A DNA stretch of 64,000 nt from Gammaproteobacteria bacterium. Lineage in GTDB: Bacteria; Pseudomonadota; Gammaproteobacteria; Poriferisulfidales; GCA-002705445. Location of the stretch: positions 195,588 through 259,587 of the forward strand of contig JABGXU010000008.1 in the NCBI GenBank assembly GCA_018675635.1, given 5' to 3'. Each line of letters begins with the position of its first letter. Within the stretch, counting starts at the first letter, position 1. Positions 2,504 to 36,788 of the stretch are shown one piece after another. The notes beneath the pieces are model-generated. The model was not told the origin of the DNA. It was given only the letters and a program-made list of their open reading frames with translations, and did no database searches. Made by a program: the position numbers and the translations under genes.

Positions 2504-3814
2504 ATGAGCGAAGTAGTAGAAAAAATAGGACCAGATTATAAAGTAGCAGATATCTCTTTAGCTGATTGGGGTCATAAAGAAATGAGTATAGCTGAAACTG
2601 AAATGCCTGGTTTAATGGCTCTTAGAGAAAAACATGGTAAGGCTAAACCATTAAGTGGAGCAAAAATAGTAGGTTGTCTTCATATGACAATACAAACCGC
2701 AGTTCTTATAGAAACTTTAGTGGAACTTGGAGCAAGTGTTAGATGGTCATCATGCAATATATATTCAACACAAGATCATGCCGCCGCCGCAATTGCAGAA
2801 AAAGGAATACCTGTATTTGCATGGAAAGGAGAGACTGAGGAGGAGTATTTGTGGTGTATAGACCAAACAATTATAGGCAATCAATCATGGAAGCCTAATA
2901 TGATTTTAGATGACGGTGGTGATTTAACTTCAATAATGCATGAGAAATATCCTGAATTATTGTCCGAAGTTAAAGGCTTATCTGAAGAAACAACAACGGG
3001 TGTTCATCGCCTACATGAAATGGTAAAAAAAGATGCACTTAAAGTGCCGGCATTTAATGTAAATGACTCTGTTACAAAATCAAAATTTGATAATTTATAC
3101 GGATGCAGAGAATCTTTAGTTGACGGCATAAAAAGAGCTACTGATGTAATGATATCCGGGAAAACTGCATTAGTTTGTGGTTTTGGTGATGTTGGCAAAG
3201 GATCTGCTCAATCATTAAGAAATGCTGGAGCAATTGTATGGGTTACAGAAATTGATCCAATTTGTGCTCTTCAAGCTGCTATGGAAGGTTTTAAGGTTGT
3301 TACTATAGAATCTGTTGCATCAGAAGTTGACATTTTTGTAACAGCAACAGGAAATGCGTCTATTATTTCGTATACTCATATGAATAAAATGAAAGACCAG
3401 GCTATAGTTTGTAATATTGGCCATTTTGATAATGAAATAGATGTTGAATCAATAAAAGATTGTAAGTGGGATAATATAAAACCACAAGTTGATCATATTG
3501 AGTTTCCAGATGGCAAAAAGATTATATTGTTGGCAGAAGGAAGATTAATAAATTTAGGATGTGCAACTGGGCATCCAAGTTACGTTATGTCTGCTTCATT
3601 CACAAATCAAGTTTTAGCTCAAATAGAATTATGGGAAAACGCAAAAAAATATAAAAATGAAGTATATGTTTTACCTAAACTATTAGATGAAGAAGTTGCT
3701 AGATTACATCTTGATAAAGTTGGGGCAAAATTAACTAAACTTACAAAAGATCAAGCAGAATATATAAGTGTAGACCAAGATGGCCCTTATAAGAATGATA
3801 CATATAGATATTAA
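2504..3814 (+). CDS. ahcY: adenosylhomocysteinase
   Basis: Carries the [14 protein letters not shown]-terminus and an NAD-binding GxGxxG ([10 protein letters not shown]). Its 436 aa length fits SAHH, and it forms a metK-ahcY pair. Confidence 0.95.
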
Positions 3815-3821
3815 TTAAGTA

Positions 3822-4559
3822 GTGCGTTTAATAAGATTATATGTTGAAGAATCATTAAATGTTAATACTTCAGTTTTTTTAAAAAAAAATTCTTACCATT
3901 ATTTAGTTAAAGTACTTAGGATAAAAGAAAACCAAAAGATTGTTTTATTTGATAATTCTGGATATGAATATTTTGGTTATGTAAAAAATATTAACAATAA
4001 ATATTTTGAAATTTTTATAGAGAAAAAAAATTACATAGAGAGAAATTTTTCAAAGGTAGAAATCGCTTTTAGTATTTGTAAAAACCCGTGCTCTGATCTT
4101 ATTATACAGAAACTTACAGAGCTTGGAATTGATTCAATACAGCCAATAATTTCAAAAAATTCAATCTTTAATCAAAAAAAATTAGATGTAGAAAAAAAAA
4201 ATTCTCATTGGAAAAATATATCTATTAGTGCTTCTGAGCAATCTGAAAGATCATATTTACCTATTATAAAAAAAATAATTTCTTTCCAGGATTATTTAGA
4301 AAATAATTCGTCTGATCAAAAAATCATTTTAGATACTAGAGTAAACGCAATGTTATCAGAAGTATTTAATAGAAAATTTAAATCATGTTCTTTGTTGGTT
4401 GGGCCAGAAGGTGATTTCACTTCTGAAGAATATGAATATGCTAAAGAACTGAATTTTTCATCAGCAAGTTTAGGTGGTAATATCTTGAGAGTTGAAACAG
4501 CAGTTATTGCGGCCTTTTCATATATTAATATACTTACTAATAGTGATAAATATGAATAA
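3822..4559 (+). CDS. rsmE: 16S rRNA (uracil1498-N3)-methyltransferase RsmE, GTG start
   Basis: The N-terminus MRLIRLYV matches E. coli MRIPRIY. A GPEGDFTSEE motif is present near the C-terminus, and the gene sits upstream of gshB as in E. coli. Confidence 0.85.
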   Translation: MRLIRLYVEESLNVNTSVFLKKNSYHYLVKVLRIKENQKIVLFDNSGYEYFGYVKNINNKYFEIFIEKKNYIERNFSKVEIAFSICKNPCSDLIIQKLTELGIDSIQPIISKNSIFNQKKLDVEKKNSHWKNISISASEQSERSYLPIIKKIISFQDYLENNSSDQKIILDTRVNAMLSEVFNRKFKSCSLLVGPEGDFTSEEYEYAKELNFSSASLGGNILRVETAVIAAFSYINILTNSDKYE

Positions 4560-5487
4560 AAAAGTACTTGTTATAATGGATCCAATTGAATCTATAAATG
4601 TACAGAGAGATACAACTTATTTATTAATGCTAGCAGCGCAAGAGATAGGTTATGAATTATTTTATTTAATGCCAGGTTCTTTATCTGTAAATTTTCTAAA
4701 ACCTGTTGGTAGAATTGCAAAAATTAAAATATTTCATAATAAAGAACCTTTTTATGATATTTCTGAAATAAAAGATACAGAGTTAGGTTTTTTTGATTGT
4801 GTGTTGATGAGAACTGATCCACCTATAAATAGCACCTATATTTACATGACATATATTTTAGACATGTTAGATGAAAAAAATATTAAAGTGATAAATTCTG
4901 GCTCTTCATTAAGAAATTATAATGAGAAACTTATTACGCTTAATTTCCCTAAATATATACCAGATACAATATTAACTTCTGACAAGAGGCAAATTGAAAA
5001 TTTTAAAATAAAACATCAAAGAATTATTTTAAAACAATTAAATCTTATGGGTGGTAGATCAATATATTTTTTAGATAAAGATGATAAAAATTTAAATGTA
5101 ATATTTGAGGACATGACTGATTTTGGCAAAAATTATATTTTAGCTCAAGAATATATATCAGAAGCTAAAACTGGAGATAAAAGAATAATTATTGTAAATG
5201 GCGAAGTTATTAAAGAAGCCGTAATTCGTGTACCAAATGATAAAGATCATCGTGCTAGCGCAGCTGCTGGAGGATCTATAGAAAAGTATTATTTAAAAAA
5301 AGAAGAAATTGAAATATGCCAAGATGTTGCAGATTTTTTATATGAAAAAAATATTCTTTTTGCAGGAATCGATATGATAGGAAATAAAATTACTGAAATT
5401 AATATAACCTCTCCGACTTGTGTAGCAGAAATTAATCAATTTCATAATATTGATCTTGGTAAAAAGTTTTGGGAATGTATTAAATGA
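4552..5487 (+). CDS. gshB: glutathione synthetase
   Basis: The GshB N-terminus MNKKVLVIMDPIESINVQRDTTYLLMLAAQEIGYEL and an ATP-grasp C-terminus are present. I placed the start at ATG 4552, which overlaps the rsmE stop by 8 nt, rather than the upstream in-frame ATG at 4492. Confidence 0.9.
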   Translation: MNKKVLVIMDPIESINVQRDTTYLLMLAAQEIGYELFYLMPGSLSVNFLKPVGRIAKIKIFHNKEPFYDISEIKDTELGFFDCVLMRTDPPINSTYIYMTYILDMLDEKNIKVINSGSSLRNYNEKLITLNFPKYIPDTILTSDKRQIENFKIKHQRIILKQLNLMGGRSIYFLDKDDKNLNVIFEDMTDFGKNYILAQEYISEAKTGDKRIIIVNGEVIKEAVIRVPNDKDHRASAAAGGSIEKYYLKKEEIEICQDVADFLYEKNILFAGIDMIGNKITEINITSPTCVAEINQFHNIDLGKKFWECIK

Positions 5488-11087: not shown

Positions 11088-11648
11088 TTGATGTCAAATT
11101 CATTTCCACAATTAGGGTTAAATTTAATAGATATATTTTTTTCTTTTATTATATTTGTTTTTACGTTAAGACTATTAATGTCTTTTTTTAGTACGAGTGC
11201 ATATAATCCAATAACGCAGTCATTAATTAAAATATCAAGACCAATATTAGTGTTTTTTTTCTTTATTCCTAATCTAAATAAATTTGAGTTATCAAGTCTT
11301 TTCGTTATATTTTTATCGCATTTTTTAAATTTTTTTATACAAGGTTCTTTAATAGGAGCAGACATTTTTATTGAGTCTATAATAATATTTTCTATTAAGA
11401 GTTCTATATTTAGCATTCTTAATGTTTTATCAATTATTTTTATAATATTAGCTTTATCTAGTTGGTTTGTTCAATCTTCACAATCTAACAGAAATCCAGC
11501 ATTAGATATAATTTATCAGATATCAACCCCAATTTTATTTTTTATTAAGAGATTAGTGCCTACATCAATAGGTGTAATAGATTTTTCAGTAATAATTGTA
11601 CTTGTTCTTATTATATTTATTAAAAATATCGTTAATATTATTTTATAA
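11088..11648 (+). CDS. yggT: YggT family inner-membrane protein
   Basis: A multi-TM protein in the conserved position after proC, with a short YggT-type repeat. Confidence 0.7.
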   Translation: MMSNSFPQLGLNLIDIFFSFIIFVFTLRLLMSFFSTSAYNPITQSLIKISRPILVFFFFIPNLNKFELSSLFVIFLSHFLNFFIQGSLIGADIFIESIIIFSIKSSIFSILNVLSIIFIILALSSWFVQSSQSNRNPALDIIYQISTPILFFIKRLVPTSIGVIDFSVIIVLVLIIFIKNIVNIIL

Positions 11649-11799
11649 GCTTATTTGTATATTTTTCTAAATTCGTATATATTGCATAAAACACCGATTT
11701 GAAGTCAGCTTGCGGGTGGGAAAATACAGCTAAAGCGAAAAATTTATCAAGCATAGCCAAATTTCCTTTATATATAATAATGATTTCAAATATGAAATT

Positions 11800-14082: not shown

Positions 14083-14481
14083 ATGACTAATTATACGGAT
14101 AAAGAATTTATGTACATAACAGAAACTGTTATGAGGATTTTAGATACTTGGAACCTTACAACCCAGCAAATGGTTTTAGTTATAGGACTTCCAACTCAAA
14201 CTAAGAAAAGACAGCTAGATAAATTCAGATCTCTAAAAGCTTTTCCAAAGGATGATCTAATTATAAAAAGGCTAAGTCATATAGTAGGAATATCTGATGC
14301 ACTACGAACTTCATTTCCAAGAAATGAAAATATGTCAGAAAAATGGTTAAAAACACAACATAGGAGATTTGATAATGAGACCCCTTTGTCTGTTATATTG
14401 GAGCAAGGGGTGGATGGACTATGTAAAGTAAGATCTGAATTAGATTGCACTTTTGCATGGGATACATCTGTACAAATTTAA
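14083..14481 (+). CDS. small protein whose C-terminus resembles the Xre/MbcA/ParS antitoxin toxin-binding domain (DUF2384)
   Basis: The C-terminus SEKWLKTQHRRFDNETPLSVILEQGVDGLCKVRSELDCTFAW fits the DUF2384 pattern W-L-x-x-x-N-x-x-l-x-x-x-TPl-x-x-l-x-x-x-x-G-x-x-x-v-x-x-x-L-x-x-i-x-x-g. Its 132 aa length is typical of the family. It lies 12 nt upstream of the SET gene. Confidence 0.5.
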   Translation: MTNYTDKEFMYITETVMRILDTWNLTTQQMVLVIGLPTQTKKRQLDKFRSLKAFPKDDLIIKRLSHIVGISDALRTSFPRNENMSEKWLKTQHRRFDNETPLSVILEQGVDGLCKVRSELDCTFAWDTSVQI

Positions 14482-14493
14482 TCAATTAATATT

Positions 14494-15006
14494 ATGAAAA
14501 AACTTTACACAATAAAAAATTCAAAATTACATGGAAAAGGGTTATTTGCTAATTGCAACATAAAAGCCGAAACAAATATTGTTGAGTACGTTGGTGAAAA
14601 AATAACAAAAGCACAATCAGAGAAAATATCTGATATACAACTAAAAAAATCTCAAAAAAATAAAGATGAAGGGCAAGTATATATTTTCACATTAAATAAT
14701 AAATATGATATTAACGGCAATGTAAATTATAACAAAGCTAGATTAATGAATCATTCATGTAATTCTAATTGTGATACCGATATAATTGATAATAAAATTT
14801 GGATAAGATCGTATAAAGATATTAAGAAAGGTGAAGAATTGACATATGATTATGGTTTTACTTTTGATAAAGATGATTTTAGAGATCACATTTGTAAATG
14901 TGGGTCAAGAAAATGTGTAGGATTTATTGTAACTGAAACAGACTGGAAAAAGCTAAGAAAGTTTCTGTTAAAGCTAGCTAAAAATTGTTTAAAAACTAAC
15001 GAATAA
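14494..15006 (+). CDS. SET-domain protein-lysine N-methyltransferase (compact, with post-SET Cys motif)
   Basis: All SET signatures are present: GKGLFA (GxG), NHSCNSNC (NHSCxPN), EELTYDYG (ELxxDY) and a post-SET CKCGSRKC. A 170 aa SET-only protein is typical of bacterial and chlamydial SET proteins. Confidence 0.85.
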   Translation: MKKLYTIKNSKLHGKGLFANCNIKAETNIVEYVGEKITKAQSEKISDIQLKKSQKNKDEGQVYIFTLNNKYDINGNVNYNKARLMNHSCNSNCDTDIIDNKIWIRSYKDIKKGEELTYDYGFTFDKDDFRDHICKCGSRKCVGFIVTETDWKKLRKFLLKLAKNCLKTNE

Positions 15007-15692: not shown

Positions 15693-16877
15693 ATGATAAC
15701 AGAAAAAAAATATACAGCTTTGGTAAACCTATTATTACAGGTACTGTTTGTTGGTATTTTGCTTGGGTTATTTAGAACTGCTATTCCAGCATTATCAGAA
15801 AGTGTTTTTTTAGTCCCTAAAAATTCATTTATATTTTTATCTACTTTTATTATTGCTTTTGGGATCATTAAGGGAATTGCTAATTATTATGCTGGTGTTT
15901 TTGCTGATAAATATAATAGAAAAACTGTTCTATTATTAGGTTGGTTAGTAGCATTTCCAGTTCCTTTTATAATTTATTTTGCTACAAATTGGTATTACAT
16001 AATTTTAGCCACATTTATTATTGGCATTAATCAAGGGCTAACCTGGTCAGTGACACAAATTTCAAGTGTAGATATTACAAAAAATGAGAATAGAGGATTT
16101 ATTGTTGGGTTAAATGAATTTTCTGGATATTTTGGTGTTGCTATTGGAGGTATTTTAGTTAGTTATATGACATCTTTACTTACAGTAAAAATAGCTTTAT
16201 TTCTTTTTAGTATAATATTTATTTTAATAGCTACTTTATATTGTATATTTTTGGTTAAAGAAACAAAAAGCTATGCAAACATAGCATTTGGTAAAAATCC
16301 AAAAAACGTTTTTTTATATGTAACATGGACAAATAAAAAATTATTTGCTTATTCTCAGGCAGGACACATTGAAAAATTTGTTGATACTTGTATATGGATC
16401 TTCTTCCCTGTTTATTTGTTTAATAACGGTGTAACTTTAATTGAAATTAGTTACATAGTTGGTACATATACTTTTACTTGGGGGATTTTTCAAATTTTCA
16501 CGGGTTTGTATTCTGATTATGTGGGAAGAAACTTATTAATTATATCAGGAATGTTAATTTGTTCTATTGTACTTCCATTATGTTTATTAAGTCTTGAATT
16601 TAGTTGGTGGATGACGTGTAGTTTTTTTCTTGGTTTGGGTATGGCTCTTTTATATCCGTCAATAAGCTCTGCTGTTAATGATAATTGTGATGATAGTTGG
16701 AGAGCTTCTGCAATTGGTATATATAGATTTTGGAGGGATACCGGTTATGCTACAGGAGCATTAGGATTAGGCATAGTAACAAGTTTAGTAAACATTGAGG
16801 CTGGCTTTATTTTTGTTTCTTTCAGCATGATATTGTCAACTTTAATTTTAATTTTTACTTTAAAAAAATATAGTTAG
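15693..16877 (+). CDS. MFS transporter
   Basis: About 12 predicted TM segments and the MFS loop motif GVFADKYNRKTVLLLG. The start was moved to ATG 15693 to avoid the overlap with yrfG. Confidence 0.7.
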   Translation: MITEKKYTALVNLLLQVLFVGILLGLFRTAIPALSESVFLVPKNSFIFLSTFIIAFGIIKGIANYYAGVFADKYNRKTVLLLGWLVAFPVPFIIYFATNWYYIILATFIIGINQGLTWSVTQISSVDITKNENRGFIVGLNEFSGYFGVAIGGILVSYMTSLLTVKIALFLFSIIFILIATLYCIFLVKETKSYANIAFGKNPKNVFLYVTWTNKKLFAYSQAGHIEKFVDTCIWIFFPVYLFNNGVTLIEISYIVGTYTFTWGIFQIFTGLYSDYVGRNLLIISGMLICSIVLPLCLLSLEFSWWMTCSFFLGLGMALLYPSISSAVNDNCDDSWRASAIGIYRFWRDTGYATGALGLGIVTSLVNIEAGFIFVSFSMILSTLILIFTLKKYS

Positions 16878-16940
16878 TATATTAAATAAAAATGTTTTTG
16901 GTGAAACGATAGGAATTTGTAGTTAAGAATACTATGTATT

Positions 16941-18449
16941 CTATTTCACAAGTGGAGGAACCATACCATGGTGAAATATGTATGCTACACCGTAAGCTAT
17001 TGGAGCTATAACTACAAATAAACCAATAGCATATAGAAATGCAAGTTTACCCATGCCTTTTAATTTACTGAAATCAGTTATTACTCCGATGCTAACGAAA
17101 GTAAGCATAAACATCATTTTTCTCATAGGGCTTTGAACAACATTAGCTCCAACTGACGCAGCATCTTTTACATCTGGCGCTAAAATAATAATTAATAAAT
17201 AAAAAAACCAGGTTATAAAATAACCAATCACAAATTTTGGAAAGCGAAACCAAATTTCTGATAAAGGCACATTACTTCCAACCGACCTTTTTTCAACTTT
17301 GTACATCCATATTAAAGCCAATATAAACGCCCAAACACCAATAAAGACATCTATCCATATTTTAGTTAATACGGCAGCAGCAAGTATCCAATCCTCTTGC
17401 CATTGTTCTCCTGTTTCTTTTAGATGTTGGCTAACCATTATTTCATCTAATATTGCTCCTGCAGCCGCATCTGCGCCATCTGTTTTAACAGTCATGCCCA
17501 TAGCAGCACCATTTACTATTGGCTCATTAGGTGCAACAGCTGCATAAAAACCTGGCAATACCACTAATTCAAGCATTGCAAATATTACTATTAACATCGA
17601 AAGGGCTATAGGCAAAATGGGTTTTGCACGAATTGCGCCAGCTGTTGCAATTGCTGCAGAAACTCCACATATTGAAATACCAGATGACAGAACTGCTGCG
17701 GCGTCTCGACTAAGCTTAAATAATCTTCGCGATATAAAATATATAATTGGCCAAAATAAAAGATATGCTACAAAAACTGCGGCTGCACCAGTTAGAGCTA
17801 GATCTATTGCAAAACCTGTTGCTCTCATAGACATTAAGCCAAGCTTTATTCCAAGATAAACAATTGCTGTTTTAATAAACCATTCTGGTTTTGCTGATTC
17901 TCGTAAAAACTTTGCCAAATTTTTAAAAAAATTTCCTATTATTAATCCAATAGCTAAAGCTAGCATATAAGAAAAACCACCACCCAATTGTAACCCCCAT
18001 GTTAAATTATATTTTTCAAAATAATTTTTTCCTTTTACAATGGCATCAACAGATTTGAAGTGTGCTTCATGACCTACAATCCAGCATAGCCATGTAATAA
18101 AAAATATAATGGTGAACCCAAAAAAGAATTTTTTTACATCAAGTTTTTGAAAGTAAGCACCAATGCATGTAATAAATGTAAAAATAAAATAAGTGAAAAA
18201 TAATGAAACTAGAGGATGTAATTGCGCATAGTATTTTGTAGATGGTTTAAGCAACTTTGCCCATGAAAAATTAGACATAAGATCAGTCCATTCCCAAGTT
18301 TTTACTTTTGTCATCCATCCTACTAGGTCAATATCCCAGATAGTAAAAAGTCCTGCAAAAAACATTATTAAACCTAACCAGACTGCCCACCAGTCTTCTG
18401 TTCGCAGCATGCCATCTGACCATTTTCTATTAATATTTTCCATATTCAT
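16941..18449 (-). CDS. polytopic inner-membrane protein, YeiH-like (putative sulfate exporter family, PF03601-like) with N-terminal extension
   Basis: LSSGISICGVSAAIATAGAIRAKP closely resembles the E. coli YeiH GAGSSICGAAAVLATEPVVKAE motif. The protein has many TM helices. It is the last gene of a three-gene operon. Confidence 0.45.
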   Translation of the reverse strand: MNMENINRKWSDGMLRTEDWWAVWLGLIMFFAGLFTIWDIDLVGWMTKVKTWEWTDLMSNFSWAKLLKPSTKYYAQLHPLVSLFFTYFIFTFITCIGAYFQKLDVKKFFFGFTIIFFITWLCWIVGHEAHFKSVDAIVKGKNYFEKYNLTWGLQLGGGFSYMLALAIGLIIGNFFKNLAKFLRESAKPEWFIKTAIVYLGIKLGLMSMRATGFAIDLALTGAAAVFVAYLLFWPIIYFISRRLFKLSRDAAAVLSSGISICGVSAAIATAGAIRAKPILPIALSMLIVIFAMLELVVLPGFYAAVAPNEPIVNGAAMGMTVKTDGADAAAGAILDEIMVSQHLKETGEQWQEDWILAAAVLTKIWIDVFIGVWAFILALIWMYKVEKRSVGSNVPLSEIWFRFPKFVIGYFITWFFYLLIIILAPDVKDAASVGANVVQSPMRKMMFMLTFVSIGVITDFSKLKGMGKLAFLYAIGLFVVIAPIAYGVAYIFHHGMVPPLVK

Positions 18450-18712
18450 ATATCAAAAATTAATATTCTGTTGAAATAGTGTGAATGATATTGATGAAGC
18501 CACTTCGGGAATGTGGAAAAATCATAAACCATATTAACTTTTATTTTTTTTCCTTTTTCTTTTATTAGTAAATTAGTTAGCGTTATTTTAATTTTATCAT
18601 CTAGATCAGTAATCTCTTTTGCTTTCAATTTCAAGAAATTATTTTTCGCAAACCAATAATTATTATTATGGCTAATTTGTAATTCTGTATTTATTACTAG
18701 TATTGTCTTCAT
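18446..18712 (-). CDS. hypothetical 88-aa protein, translationally coupled to its neighbours
   Basis: The ATGA start/stop overlaps on both sides argue that it is translated. It has no recognisable motif. Confidence 0.45.
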   Translation of the reverse strand: MKTILVINTELQISHNNNYWFAKNNFLKLKAKEITDLDDKIKITLTNLLIKEKGKKIKVNMVYDFSTFPKWLHQYHSHYFNRILIFDI

Positions 18713-18873
18713 AATACTAACAAGTTTATTAAAATACCGAGAATAATTAAACCAATAATGGCAATTAGGATACTATAGATTACTAGTTTTGATTCCCAGC
18801 TTTCCCATGGTTCTGGGTTACTTAGTAATTCTTGCGCAGACTCTAATTCAATAGATTTTACTTTATCTTTCAT
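18709..18873 (-). CDS. small 54-aa single-TM protein (MKDKVKSIELESAQELLSNPEPWESWESKLVIYSILIAIIGLIILGILINLLVL), not in the supplied ORF track
   Basis: It has an ATG with GAGG 9 nt upstream. Its stop overlaps the ATG of the 88-aa ORF (ATGA), and it has a hydrophobic C-terminal helix. I translated it by hand. Confidence 0.45.
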   Translation of the reverse strand: MKDKVKSIELESAQELLSNPEPWESWESKLVIYSILIAIIGLIILGILINLLVL

Positions 18874-19012
18874 TTTTAAAAACCTCATAAAGTACTTTAT
18901 ATAATATATGGAAAAATTTGCTAAATTAACAAATTTTTCTTATAGAGTAGTTTAATATGAATAGCATAAAAGTTAGATATGCTAAAGATTTTTTTTAATA
19001 GAATATTATAAA

Positions 19013-19088
19013 TGGTGGCTCGGGGCAGAATTGAACTGCCGACACGAGGATTTTCAGTCCACTGCTCTACCAACTGAGCTACCAAGCC
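19013..19088 (-). tRNA. pheT: tRNA-Phe (anticodon GAA)
   Basis: The minus-strand sequence is GGCTTGGTAGCTCAGTTGGTAGAGCAGTGGACTGAAAATCC...GTTCAATTCTGCCCCGAGCCACCA. It folds as a cloverleaf with a 7-bp acceptor stem containing one G-U pair, the anticodon loop CUGAAAA, the T-loop GTTCAATTC and an encoded CCA. Confidence 0.9.
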
Positions 19089-34806: not shown

Positions 34807-35973
34807 TTATGTATCTTCATAAATAATTCTCCATTTTCCGTCTTTTTCTTTCTTCCAGAATAATTTTTTATTTGTAGCAGTTTTAAAATTATTGCTTTCA
34901 TAAAATTGTCTAAAATCAGCATATATTAAATTTCTTTGCTCAGGATAAAAAAATAAGTTTAGATTTTTAATATTTATTTTAATGAAAGTTTTGTTCCCAA
35001 TTATTCTTAAAATATGCGCAACTCTTTTCTCAAAATCATGTGTTTTACTATTAAAATTAATTGAATGTTGTGCTATAAAAGAGTGTGGATCCAGACTTTC
35101 CCAGCTCTTTTCCCATTCTTTTATGAAATTATTTGCTTCTTCTTTATTTTGGTGCCACTTATTTCTTTTTATCCAATTTACGTTTTCTACTAATAGAACT
35201 GGTGTTTTGCCTATTTCAGTGTATTTTTTTAATTTCTGCAGGGTTCTGTTGCTCGTTACAACGCAACCTTCACTAGTAAGCGGAGGTCTACTATAAACAT
35301 CCCTAGGAACTCCGTGAATCCATATACCGTAACCAGTTTTATTATTTCTTATATCCCATGAGTTTGGATAATTTATAGGGTATGCTCCATTACCATATAG
35401 TTCCGGAAGATCTTCATCTATTAAATGTGAAGTAATCTTATAAACGCCGATAGGGGTTTTATTATCACCAGAGATTGATTTATTGTAACCACCTTTACCA
35501 ATAGAAACATAATAATCTGCAATAATTTCTGGAATCCCACTATTATTTTTTACTAAATATAATCTTGATTTAGATAGTTCAATTAAAAAAGCATATTTAA
35601 CATTATCAGATAATTGAACTATTGATTTAGGTAAAAGATCATTTTTTTTATATACAGAAGTAAAATTTATTCTAGCCTTTGCTTCACTCTTTAAATCATT
35701 TATTTTTTTGTCTTTAGATTTACTACTGAGTACTGGTTTTTTTTGTAGATGTGATGATAATAAATCAGCATAAATTACTTTTCCTAATTTAAAATTTGGG
35801 TAATTTTTACTTAATTTTTCAGCAATAAATAAAGCTTCTTCATTACTGCCATTTCTCATGTAGTCAATTATTTTTAAAAGTTCAATTTCTGCTTTTTCAT
35901 TTGGAGAAATTATTTCATCAGCATAAATATTATTAACAAATAATATAATTAATAAAAGATATAGAGTGCGCAT
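34807..35973 (-). CDS. L,D-transpeptidase (YkuD domain) with signal peptide and C-terminal NTF2-like domain
   Basis: The YkuD catalytic motif IHGVP...SEGCVVTSNRTL is present. Its C-terminal domain is paralogous to the C-terminus of the upstream TPR gene. Confidence 0.7.
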   Translation of the reverse strand: MRTLYLLLIILFVNNIYADEIISPNEKAEIELLKIIDYMRNGSNEEALFIAEKLSKNYPNFKLGKVIYADLLSSHLQKKPVLSSKSKDKKINDLKSEAKARINFTSVYKKNDLLPKSIVQLSDNVKYAFLIELSKSRLYLVKNNSGIPEIIADYYVSIGKGGYNKSISGDNKTPIGVYKITSHLIDEDLPELYGNGAYPINYPNSWDIRNNKTGYGIWIHGVPRDVYSRPPLTSEGCVVTSNRTLQKLKKYTEIGKTPVLLVENVNWIKRNKWHQNKEEANNFIKEWEKSWESLDPHSFIAQHSINFNSKTHDFEKRVAHILRIIGNKTFIKINIKNLNLFFYPEQRNLIYADFRQFYESNNFKTATNKKLFWKKEKDGKWRIIYEDT

Positions 35974-36788
35974 TATTTAAGAATGTATTCTCCAGTTATC
36001 TTAAAACTATTATTTATTATGACTAATGTGGCATGTTTATTAACAACATCTGAAAATGAGTCTGAATTATAATTTTGTGTAAATTGAAGTAATACATTTT
36101 TATTACCAAAATTTATAACTTTAAAATTTAAAATTTTAACTTTTATATTTTTTTTACTTAAAATTTTATTTTTCCTATCTGTTTCCCATAATATTCTAGA
36201 TTTATATTTCTTAGGAAAATAGCCTTTTTTATAGTAATTAAAATATTCTTGATAGTTTTTGTTTTCCCATGATCGAGCCCAATTGTTAATAAACTCTTGT
36301 GCTCTACCAGAATCAATTGACTGAATATTCTCAATATTAGTTTTTTTGGTTACTGTGTTATTTGTTATTTCATTTTTAATTGTCATTGTATCTAATGCTT
36401 TTGCTAATATTAATTTGATGCTATTTTTTTCTGAATCTTTAATTGAGAGTGCTTCCTCATATAAGATATTTGCCTGATAAGCATACAAACTTGTTAAATT
36501 TTTGTAGATAATTTCTATATTTTTATTATTGCTTATAGATTGTCTTAGTATTTTTACTGCAGTATCTATATTGCCTTGTTTTGCTTCTATATAAGCAATG
36601 TTATTTATAACTTGATCATTCTTTGGATGATTTTTTAATATATTTTTTAAAATATTTTTAGCTGCTGAAAAATTCTCTATAAGAATTAATTCATTTGCTG
36701 CATTAAATTTCTCAAAATTATCTACTGAAAATGCTGGGCAAATATTTGAAGCAATCAAGAAAAAAAAAATTACTGTTTTTTTACGCAT
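35973..36788 (-). CDS. secreted TPR-repeat protein with C-terminal NTF2-like domain
   Basis: A signal peptide and TPR-like repeats are present. The C-terminal EFINNWARSWENKNYQEYF resembles the downstream gene's NNFIKEWEKSWESLDPHSF. Confidence 0.55.
   Translation of the reverse strand: MRKKTVIFFFLIASNICPAFSVDNFEKFNAANELILIENFSAAKNILKNILKNHPKNDQVINNIAYIEAKQGNIDTAVKILRQSISNNKNIEIIYKNLTSLYAYQANILYEEALSIKDSEKNSIKLILAKALDTMTIKNEITNNTVTKKTNIENIQSIDSGRAQEFINNWARSWENKNYQEYFNYYKKGYFPKKYKSRILWETDRKNKILSKKNIKVKILNFKVINFGNKNVLLQFTQNYNSDSFSDVVNKHATLVIINNSFKITGEYILK

Follow-up and report, generated by a model that had tools for sequence, protein, structure and literature searches.

A membrane peptide and a DUF5395 protein encoded with a YeiH-related permease: a conserved gene trio and candidate three-component transporter of Gammaproteobacteria

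Introduction

Transporters of the PF03601/YeiH group are widespread, and only recently have they been tied to a function, namely sulfite resistance. The YeiH or PSE family (TC 2.A.98; Pfam PF03601, Cons_hypoth698) counts SuyZ, TauZ and Hden_0834 among its members, and the name 'sulfate exporter' stems from SuyZ, which is more probably an exporter of sulfite. Sulfite resistance in Salmonella depends chiefly on YeiH (PMC12880088), whilst the PSE family, with SuyZ and Hden_0834, provides candidate sulfite exporters, Hden_0834 being induced 526-fold by thiosulfate (PMC11582611). Here we analyse a stretch of 64,000 nucleotides (nt), referred to below as the window (GenBank assembly GCA_018675635.1, contig JABGXU010000008.1, positions 195,588 to 259,587), from a metagenome-assembled genome (MAG) of uncultured marine Gammaproteobacteria with 29% G+C, in which the gene for a PSE/YeiH-superfamily permease is preceded by genes for two undescribed partners, a membrane peptide of 54 amino acids (aa) and an 88-aa DUF5395 protein. 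The family to which the peptide belongs, marked by the motif EPWxxWE and comprising at least 872 clusters, is absent from Pfam, and neither small protein is mentioned in the searchable literature. No paper with the term 'DUF5395' was found, and searches on 'PF03601', 'UPF0324' and 'COG2855' returned structure-prediction or incidental mentions only.

Results and discussion

The gene trio and its conservation

The three genes lie together on the minus strand of the window, and all are already annotated in public records.

18709-18873, minus strand: gene 1, single-pass membrane peptide, 54 aa (open reading frame read from the sequence)
18446-18712, minus strand: gene 2, DUF5395 protein, 88 aa (open reading frame and Pfam PF17373)
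16941-18449, minus strand: gene 3, polytopic permease, 502 aa, a divergent member of PF03601 (PSE family; open reading frame and Pfam)

An earlier note, made from the letters of this DNA alone, had described three minus-strand open reading frames joined by ATGA start/stop overlaps, and both the coordinates and the two overlaps (TATTATGAAG and ATATATGAAT) were as it had claimed. Further loci (given L numbers below) were gathered starting from the DUF5395 protein, the peptide and the permease, with 80 metagenome loci added later. The trio had the same order and strand in all 30 loci of the first rounds; where there was enough flank, the peptide gene stood upstream of the DUF5395 gene in 93 of 95 loci and the permease gene downstream of it in 92 of 93, and look-ups started from the permease recovered the trio in five cases out of five. 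There were three exceptions, these being L067, which has no permease gene, and L102 and L104, which are visibly degraded, truncated copies. In the metagenome locus L067 (4511-4952) a DUF5395 gene (95 aa) and a peptide-like stretch are followed by convergent alanine dehydrogenase and pyruvate dehydrogenase genes. The trio is retained in a distant lineage, with a permease 54% identical to that of the window and the variant peptide motif EPWSPIE. Named hosts are all Gammaproteobacteria, and comprise Nitrosococcus oceani, N. watsonii, N. halophilus, Kaarinaea lacus, Candidatus Kentrum, one Thiotrichaceae MAG and one Ectothiorhodospiraceae MAG.

Each of the three genes evolves under purifying selection. 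Ratios of non-synonymous to synonymous substitution (dN/dS) against close relatives were about 0.06 for the permease, 0.12-0.24 (about 0.19) for DUF5395 and 0.13-0.16 (about 0.14) for the peptide, at a synonymous divergence of 35-50%. All-against-all clustering of the open reading frames of 19 and then 51 non-redundant loci found that the trio alone recurs, and since no further neighbour is conserved the cassette is self-contained; other common neighbours (tuf-secE-nusG and MFS-HAD-SET) reflect synteny among close relatives. The three are genuine genes that travel together. The small open reading frames are strongly conserved and co-occur with the permease gene in related and distant genomes, and the proposal of the earlier note, which took their products for helpers or regulators of a transporter not yet characterised, is supported as the best available interpretation. 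We put a probability of roughly 55% on the reading that the trio is one dedicated unit, a three-component secondary transporter.

Tight translational coupling, on which the earlier note had laid weight, was borne out only in part. The overlaps are real, but 4-nt overlaps occur in at least six further same-strand pairs of large open reading frames within the window, and the junctions of the trio vary among relatives, some being overlaps and others gaps of tens of nt. ATGA coupling is a trait of this compact genome and not a conserved property of the trio, and because such overlaps are common in the window and the junctions vary in relatives, the 'stoichiometric coupling' named in that note is something that the overlaps may at most suggest. 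This bears on an alternative that we regard as doubtful, in which the trio is a functional unit whose small proteins are not stoichiometric subunits but help the permease to assemble or insert, or regulate it conditionally; DUF5395 could, for example, be an inhibitor released by a signal, like SbtB for SbtA. Besides the unconserved coupling, it would agree with the faster divergence of the small proteins, since across the compared loci identity to the window protein was 25-70% for DUF5395 and about 45-80% for the peptide as against 60-90% for the permease (50-98% for the permeases of all fetched loci), with small-gene dN/dS two to four times the permease value, and with the occurrence of DUF5395 where there is no permease (L067, and the Firmicute-like context described below). 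The near-obligate adjacency of the genes and the invariant motifs in both small proteins nevertheless suit permanent partners at least equally well.

The 54-aa membrane peptide

The following features of the peptide gene are referred to below.

18793-18813, minus strand: EPWESWE, the juxtamembrane motif (EPWxxWE), invariant in the family (alignment A2)
18712-18786, minus strand: predicted membrane helix LVIYSILIAIIGLIILGILINLLVL, running to the last residue (hydrophobic stretch)
18883-18886, minus strand: GAGG, a Shine-Dalgarno-like element, 9 nt 5' of the ATG at 18873 and overlapping the alternative ATG at 18886-18888

No model in Pfam or NCBIfam matched the peptide. It had been taken in the earlier note for an unannotated frame, a view that does not hold given that an identical protein is deposited in GenBank (MBT7543415.1, hypothetical protein); the GAGG ribosome-binding site and the W-rich stretch PEPWESWES noted at the same time are both present in the sequence. 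The gene can be read from a first ATG at 18888, giving 59 aa (18709-18888), or from a second at 18873, giving 54 aa, and the overlap of the GAGG element with the earlier ATG favours the 54-aa start, which is also the form found in GenBank. A profile search gave a family of at least 872 clusters; the 120 matches listed were 51-93 aa in length and none of these 120 carried a Pfam domain. Named sources label members as hypothetical, except for the JGI/IMG label 'cytochrome b561' on some of 51-59 aa, which on a single-helix peptide looks like an annotation artefact.

Alignment A2 showed E21, P22, W23, W26, E27, L30, L42, L45, G46 and L54 to be invariant and G41 nearly so, and EPW..WE was carried by each of the 124 family members examined. 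In 118 of these 124 there is at most one residue beyond the hydrophobic stretch (0-1), whilst the N-terminal tail of about 29 residues is net negative in all 124, with a median charge of -7. This order of an acidic tail and then a helix ending at the C-terminus points to a topology that is predicted to be tail-anchor-like. The window peptide carries EPWxxWE and a C-terminal membrane helix and is encoded directly upstream of DUF5395, the combination that defines membership of the family. Being short, first in the operon and ambiguous in its start (54 or 59 aa), the frame might be thought a chance open reading frame or a regulatory leader peptide, an idea that is scarcely credible and looks refuted by the pattern of conservation, given ten invariant amino acid positions across divergent Gammaproteobacteria, the size of the family, a dN/dS of about 0.14 at 35-47% synonymous-site divergence and a membrane helix kept even in the shortest version, of 43 aa. 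The peptide is thus a demonstrably real small membrane protein, of a kind easily lost to length filters on open reading frames.

The DUF5395 protein

Contrary to the earlier statement that the 88-aa protein belongs to no recognisable family, it matched Pfam PF17373 (DUF5395) with 76.2 bits against a gathering threshold of 25, residues 10-87 covering profile positions 3-80 of 81, and the identical protein is annotated by NCBI as 'DUF5395 family protein'. The family is small, for when its profile was run exhaustively against 1.84 billion representative proteins only 110 representative clusters were found. The hits were stand-alone proteins of 42-147 aa, the sole exception being a weak match of 675 aa, and no convincing gene fusion of the Rosetta stone type was found among the 110 clusters. 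The conserved part of the family is the C-terminal FDFxTxPxWL[RH]QYxxHYFNR, which includes the following feature.

18467-18511, minus strand: conserved aromatic/basic C-terminal motif of DUF5395, FPKWLHQYHSHYFNR (alignments A1 and A5)

In ten trio-linked DUF5395 proteins (alignment A1) P69, W71, L72, Q74, Y75, H78, Y79, F80, N81 and R82 were invariant; across 60 diverse members (alignment A5) W20, P69 and Y79 were invariant, and L37, W71, Q74, Y75, F80 and N81 were conserved in at least 90%. A distant DUF5395 protein with WLRQYxxYYFNR, encoded in L111 (3225-3488), has neither the peptide gene nor a PF03601 gene near it and is on its own among Firmicute-like neighbours (SpoIIP, rpsT, holA and moa genes), from which it follows that the Pfam family is wider than the trio.

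The AlphaFold2 model of DUF5395 had a predicted local distance difference test score (pLDDT) of 86.8 and showed a single domain of beta-beta-beta-alpha-beta order with a further C-terminal strand. Judged by its best structural matches, the modelled fold may be HicB/TTHA1013-like, and the protein is predicted to be cytoplasmic; a sequence search of PDB with DUF5395 returned noise only. Since approximately 50-aa single-helix peptides resemble type I toxins, the HicB-like matches also fit a reading of the small genes as a toxin-antitoxin-like pair, in which a small hydrophobic toxin of the membrane is matched with an antitoxin of HicB fold and the pair merely adjoins the transporter gene. We consider this very improbable. 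DUF5395 is a single 88-aa domain without a DNA-binding domain and has no HicA partner, its neighbours being the membrane peptide and the permease, and the peptide has a conserved acidic motif and is not a hydrophobic helix alone. Toxin-antitoxin pairs are usually patchy and mobile in distribution, unlike this pair, which is fixed upstream of one permease, is under strong purifying selection and was fetched from many lineages. A defence-system reading was likewise dropped, as PADLOC gave no hits.

The permease and its relation to YeiH

The permease comprises the following parts.

17970-18449, minus strand: N-terminal extension, aa 1-160, with three predicted membrane helices and W-rich loops, not in canonical YeiH
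17037-17969, minus strand: PF03601 core, aa 161-471 (Pfam)
17619-17687, minus strand: first signature segment, SSGISICGVSAAIATAGAIRAKP, shared with YeiH (SICGAAAVLAT)
17442-17513, minus strand: second signature segment, NGAAMGMTVKTDGADAAAGAILDE, with K321, D323 and G324 invariant and D326 nearly so

The likeness to YeiH drawn in the earlier note stood as far as the superfamily goes. The segment ICGVSAAIATAGAIRAKP is present, and the 502-aa protein passed the hidden Markov model of PF03601 with 72.9 bits against a cut-off of 24.5, residues 161-471 aligning with profile positions 29-301 of 304; NCBI annotates the product as a putative sulfate exporter family transporter. It is, all the same, only a remote relative of YeiH. 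In a control BLASTP comparison with E. coli YeiH, identity was 24% over 184 aa (E = 7e-7), in an alignment that includes SICG..A..AT and a second G..V...AAG segment. Against the YeiH-subfamily model TIGR00698, with a cut-off of 232.6, the window permease scored 25.1 bits, that of the Nitrosococcus trio 35 bits and that of L112 17 bits, whereas E. coli YeiH scored 568. Having passed PF03601 and failed TIGR00698, the permease is a member of the PF03601 superfamily and not of the YeiH subfamily. Its length tells the same story, since the subfamily is about 335-350 aa long with no N-terminal extension and the permease is, as noted earlier, some 150 aa longer than E. coli YeiH (502 as against 349 aa). 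More than 6,600 homologues were found at E <= 0.001, the 120 best listed, Nitrosococcus among them, being 63-99% identical. As a branch of PF03601 the trio permeases are conserved to an unusual degree.

Two segments of the permease, SICGVSAAIATAGAIRAKP and NGAAMGMTVKTDGADAAAGAILDE, are almost invariant in 42 homologues. The first signature segment (SSGISICGVSAAIATAGAIRAKP) aligns with E. coli YeiH residues 138-157 and lies in a broken-helix region of the AlphaFold2 model (pLDDT 72, predicted template modelling score 0.70); the YeiH counterpart of the second is GSTVHEVAQVVAAG. The same model places the helices of the extension at residues 17-37, 78-99 and 104-137. The modelled fold is that of the CPA/AT superfamily with two discontinuous helices, and the protein is probably an elevator-type carrier. 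No sequence relative of the permease and no structure of the PSE family was found in PDB. Structure comparison gave the values below.

PIN8: 12.7
LYCHOS: 12.4
SbtA, 16% identity: 12.1
Na+/H+ antiporters and KefC: about 11
AspT: 11.0
CitS: 11.0
OadB: 9.4
ASBT: 8.2

Coupling to cations or protons is suggested by the invariant K-T-D-G-A-D segment, which lies in the second broken-helix region. This segment also bears on an alternative that we hold to be improbable, in which the cargo is a different one and the permease is a cation/proton or Na+-coupled carrier, or an SbtA-like bicarbonate importer serving autotrophic carboxylation. K321 and D323, which are invariant, and the near-invariant D326 lie in that region, and the pattern recalls the ion-binding sites of CPA transporters. 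Several named hosts, these being Nitrosococcus, Thiotrichaceae, Ectothiorhodospiraceae and Kentrum, are chemolithotrophs, and in L009 the trio lies between cbbQ/cbbO-like genes and a phosphoenolpyruvate carboxylase gene. This last hint of inorganic carbon was rejected, being restricted to one lineage and having no RuBisCO genes adjoining. DUF5395, moreover, is not PII-like, unlike SbtB, and the permease has no Pfam match to the SbtA family. An ABC transporter/urea-carboxylase cluster that follows the Kaarinaea trio was also weighed as a hint of inorganic carbon and set aside as an unrelated guanidine operon, its own guanidine-I and guanidine-II riboswitches marking it as separate.

Permeases of 550-570 aa (L009 8001-9665, L029 9575-11275) are lengthened by about 50-65 residues inserted into the loop that follows the third helix (alignment A3, columns ~156-225). 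The insertion holds two conserved cysteines, is internal to the loop and not a fusion, and is probably a periplasmic disulfide-bonded module. L017 encodes a second PF03601 paralogue (3669-5363, minus strand; about 564 aa, sharing 28% identity with the permease of the window) convergent to the trio.

A proposed three-component transporter

The reality of the genes, their obligate co-occurrence and the assignments of family and fold are shown. On the favoured reading of the trio as one transport unit, we infer a physical complex, its topology, a direction of transport and a substrate, as follows. The peptide would pack against the permease in the membrane, and its N-terminal tail, if cytoplasmic, would dock DUF5395 by presenting EPWxxWE to the aromatic/basic motif WL[RH]QYxxHYFNR. 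DUF5395 so docked would act as a regulatory or stabilising subunit, and the permease would export a small inorganic anion, for example sulfite or sulfate, from the cytoplasm. By analogy with the family of YeiH, SuyZ and Hden_0834, an anion of this sort is the most likely cargo and our best guess.

Several observations weigh against this scheme. The short acidic tail of the peptide could cross the membrane into the periplasm, where it would be unable to touch a cytoplasmic DUF5395. The distance of the permease from characterised YeiH (24% over 184 aa; 25 bits against 232.6) makes the transfer of a substrate from YeiH weak, and the model of the permease is of moderate confidence only (pLDDT 72). 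No regulator of the LysR/YeiE type was present in the Pfam lists of any annotated trio neighbourhood, nor was a sulfur-metabolism gene linked to the trio there, and no link to sulfur metabolism was found for the Nitrosococcus and low-G+C marine MAG hosts. L067, which keeps DUF5395 without the permease, and the distant DUF5395 standing alone in a Firmicute context indicate that DUF5395 is not strictly tied to the permease.

A bolder version, which as a whole we would call speculative and rather unlikely, is that the trio represents an undescribed obligate three-subunit architecture of the CPA/AT superfamily, common in marine and chemolithotrophic Gammaproteobacteria, in which the acidic peptide, anchored by its tail, would hold a cytoplasmic subunit of HicB fold at a YeiH-related permease and gate that permease. 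Such a system might be the cytoplasmic sulfite/sulfate exporter still missing from the picture of sulfur-oxidising Gammaproteobacteria, or a carrier of ions or inorganic carbon that has so far gone unrecognised.

If the complex is real, it would give the CPA/AT superfamily a new subunit architecture, place DUF5395 in a defined context and offer a testable candidate for an anion-handling step in the host bacteria, which include the cultivable Nitrosococcus and Kaarinaea. The cassette is clearly delimited and widespread, and in cultured Nitrosococcus it is within reach of experiment.

Flanking signals and neighbouring genes

Around the trio the window holds the following features.

19013-19088, minus strand: tRNA-Phe gene, about 125 nt upstream of the peptide gene
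18903-18932, minus strand: promoter-like site TTGTTA, 18-nt spacer, TATATT, between the tRNA-Phe and peptide genes, with 9 of 12 consensus matches
16926-16942, minus strand: small hairpin AGAATAC-ATA-GTATTCT over the permease stop codon (-8.8 kcal/mol, z = -2.6)

The region upstream of the peptide gene is AT-rich and promoter-like sites in it showed no enrichment over shuffles, so that the site at 18903-18932 is a candidate only. The hairpin lies between the convergent permease and MFS genes and has no T-run; with low confidence, it may be a terminator. In an Rfam scan of the window the tRNA-Phe was the only match, and neither here nor in eight other loci did Rfam reveal a riboswitch or other leader RNA ahead of the trio. 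A further 20 open reading frames of the window, annotated with Pfam, were housekeeping genes only, with markers of sulfur oxidation and carbon fixation absent among them.

Elsewhere in the window, the gene for a 132-aa protein that weakly matches the Xre/MbcA/ParS antitoxin C-terminal domain is directly followed by one for a bacterial SET-domain protein of 170 aa (14083-15006, plus strand), a pair whose synteny is kept in the close relatives L005 and L023. Two adjoining paralogues with a Cds6 C-terminal NTF2-like domain, one of which also has a YkuD L,D-transpeptidase domain, lie at 34807-36788 (minus strand).

In three separate lineages the trio adjoins translation loci. In the window it comes just downstream of the tRNA-Phe gene, in Nitrosococcus watsonii (L008 9770-14568) just upstream of an rRNA operon, and in L002 (8071-12264), L011, L012 and their relatives just upstream of tuf-secE-nusG-rplKAJL; this may be chance or a hint of constitutive expression. 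L013 (2485-2985), L014 (8976-9460) and L029 (8227-8448) have small open reading frames for predicted two-helix membrane proteins at a distance of a few hundred nt on the upstream side of the trio, one of about 72 aa being common to all three and one of about 86 aa occurring in L013, L014 and two further loci, and they could be extra components in those lineages. Divergently adjacent to the most distant trio (L112 2816-6624, minus strand) are a Tll0287-like sensor kinase and a sigma-54-dependent response regulator, which may be lineage-specific regulators of the cassette. Guanidine-I and guanidine-II riboswitches (11561-11693 and 15937-15984) flank the cluster of ABC transporter, DUF1989 and urea(guanidine)-carboxylase genes directly downstream of the trio in Kaarinaea lacus (L029). 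Near the trio of a 5.6-Mb JGI genome (L025 5925-7412) there is a Cas12f1-like open reading frame with a TNB domain, possibly TnpB-like, together with a type ISP restriction-modification gene.

Comparison with known systems

The closest described relative of the trio permease is YeiH, with which it shares PF03601 homology, the SICG..A..AT and second G..V...AAG segments and the type of an inner-membrane polytopic CPA/AT carrier, and the two may have in common a role in the efflux of small anions, sulfite or sulfate (PMC12880088, PMC11582611). In contrast to YeiH, the permease is about 150 aa longer with three additional N-terminal helices, has KTDGAD where YeiH has HEVAQV, and is preceded by two small genes that the E. 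coli yeiE-yeiH locus does not have.

The oxaloacetate decarboxylase Na+ pump combines a CPA/AT-fold beta subunit with a single-pass gamma subunit and offers an architectural analogy only, since the small subunits have no sequence homology and the carboxyltransferase/biotin partner is absent in the trio. In the gamma subunit of oxaloacetate decarboxylase, moreover, the membrane helix is N-terminal, whereas in the trio peptide it is C-terminal. For SbtA/SbtB, SbtB is PII-like and SbtA is not known to have a single-pass peptide partner; that system pairs an SbtA-family permease with a PII-like SbtB, whereas DUF5395 matches HicB/TTHA1013-like folds and the trio permease finds no SbtA-family match in Pfam.

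Small membrane proteins encoded just upstream of a secondary transporter are also known from DUF485/YjcH with ActP, and from DUF4212 or DUF3311 with sodium:solute symporters. What these pairs have in common with the trio is a conserved membrane protein of short length whose gene directly precedes, and co-occurs with, that of the transporter, but the transporters belong to another superfamily, the peptides are not homologous, and the trio adds a third, soluble component.

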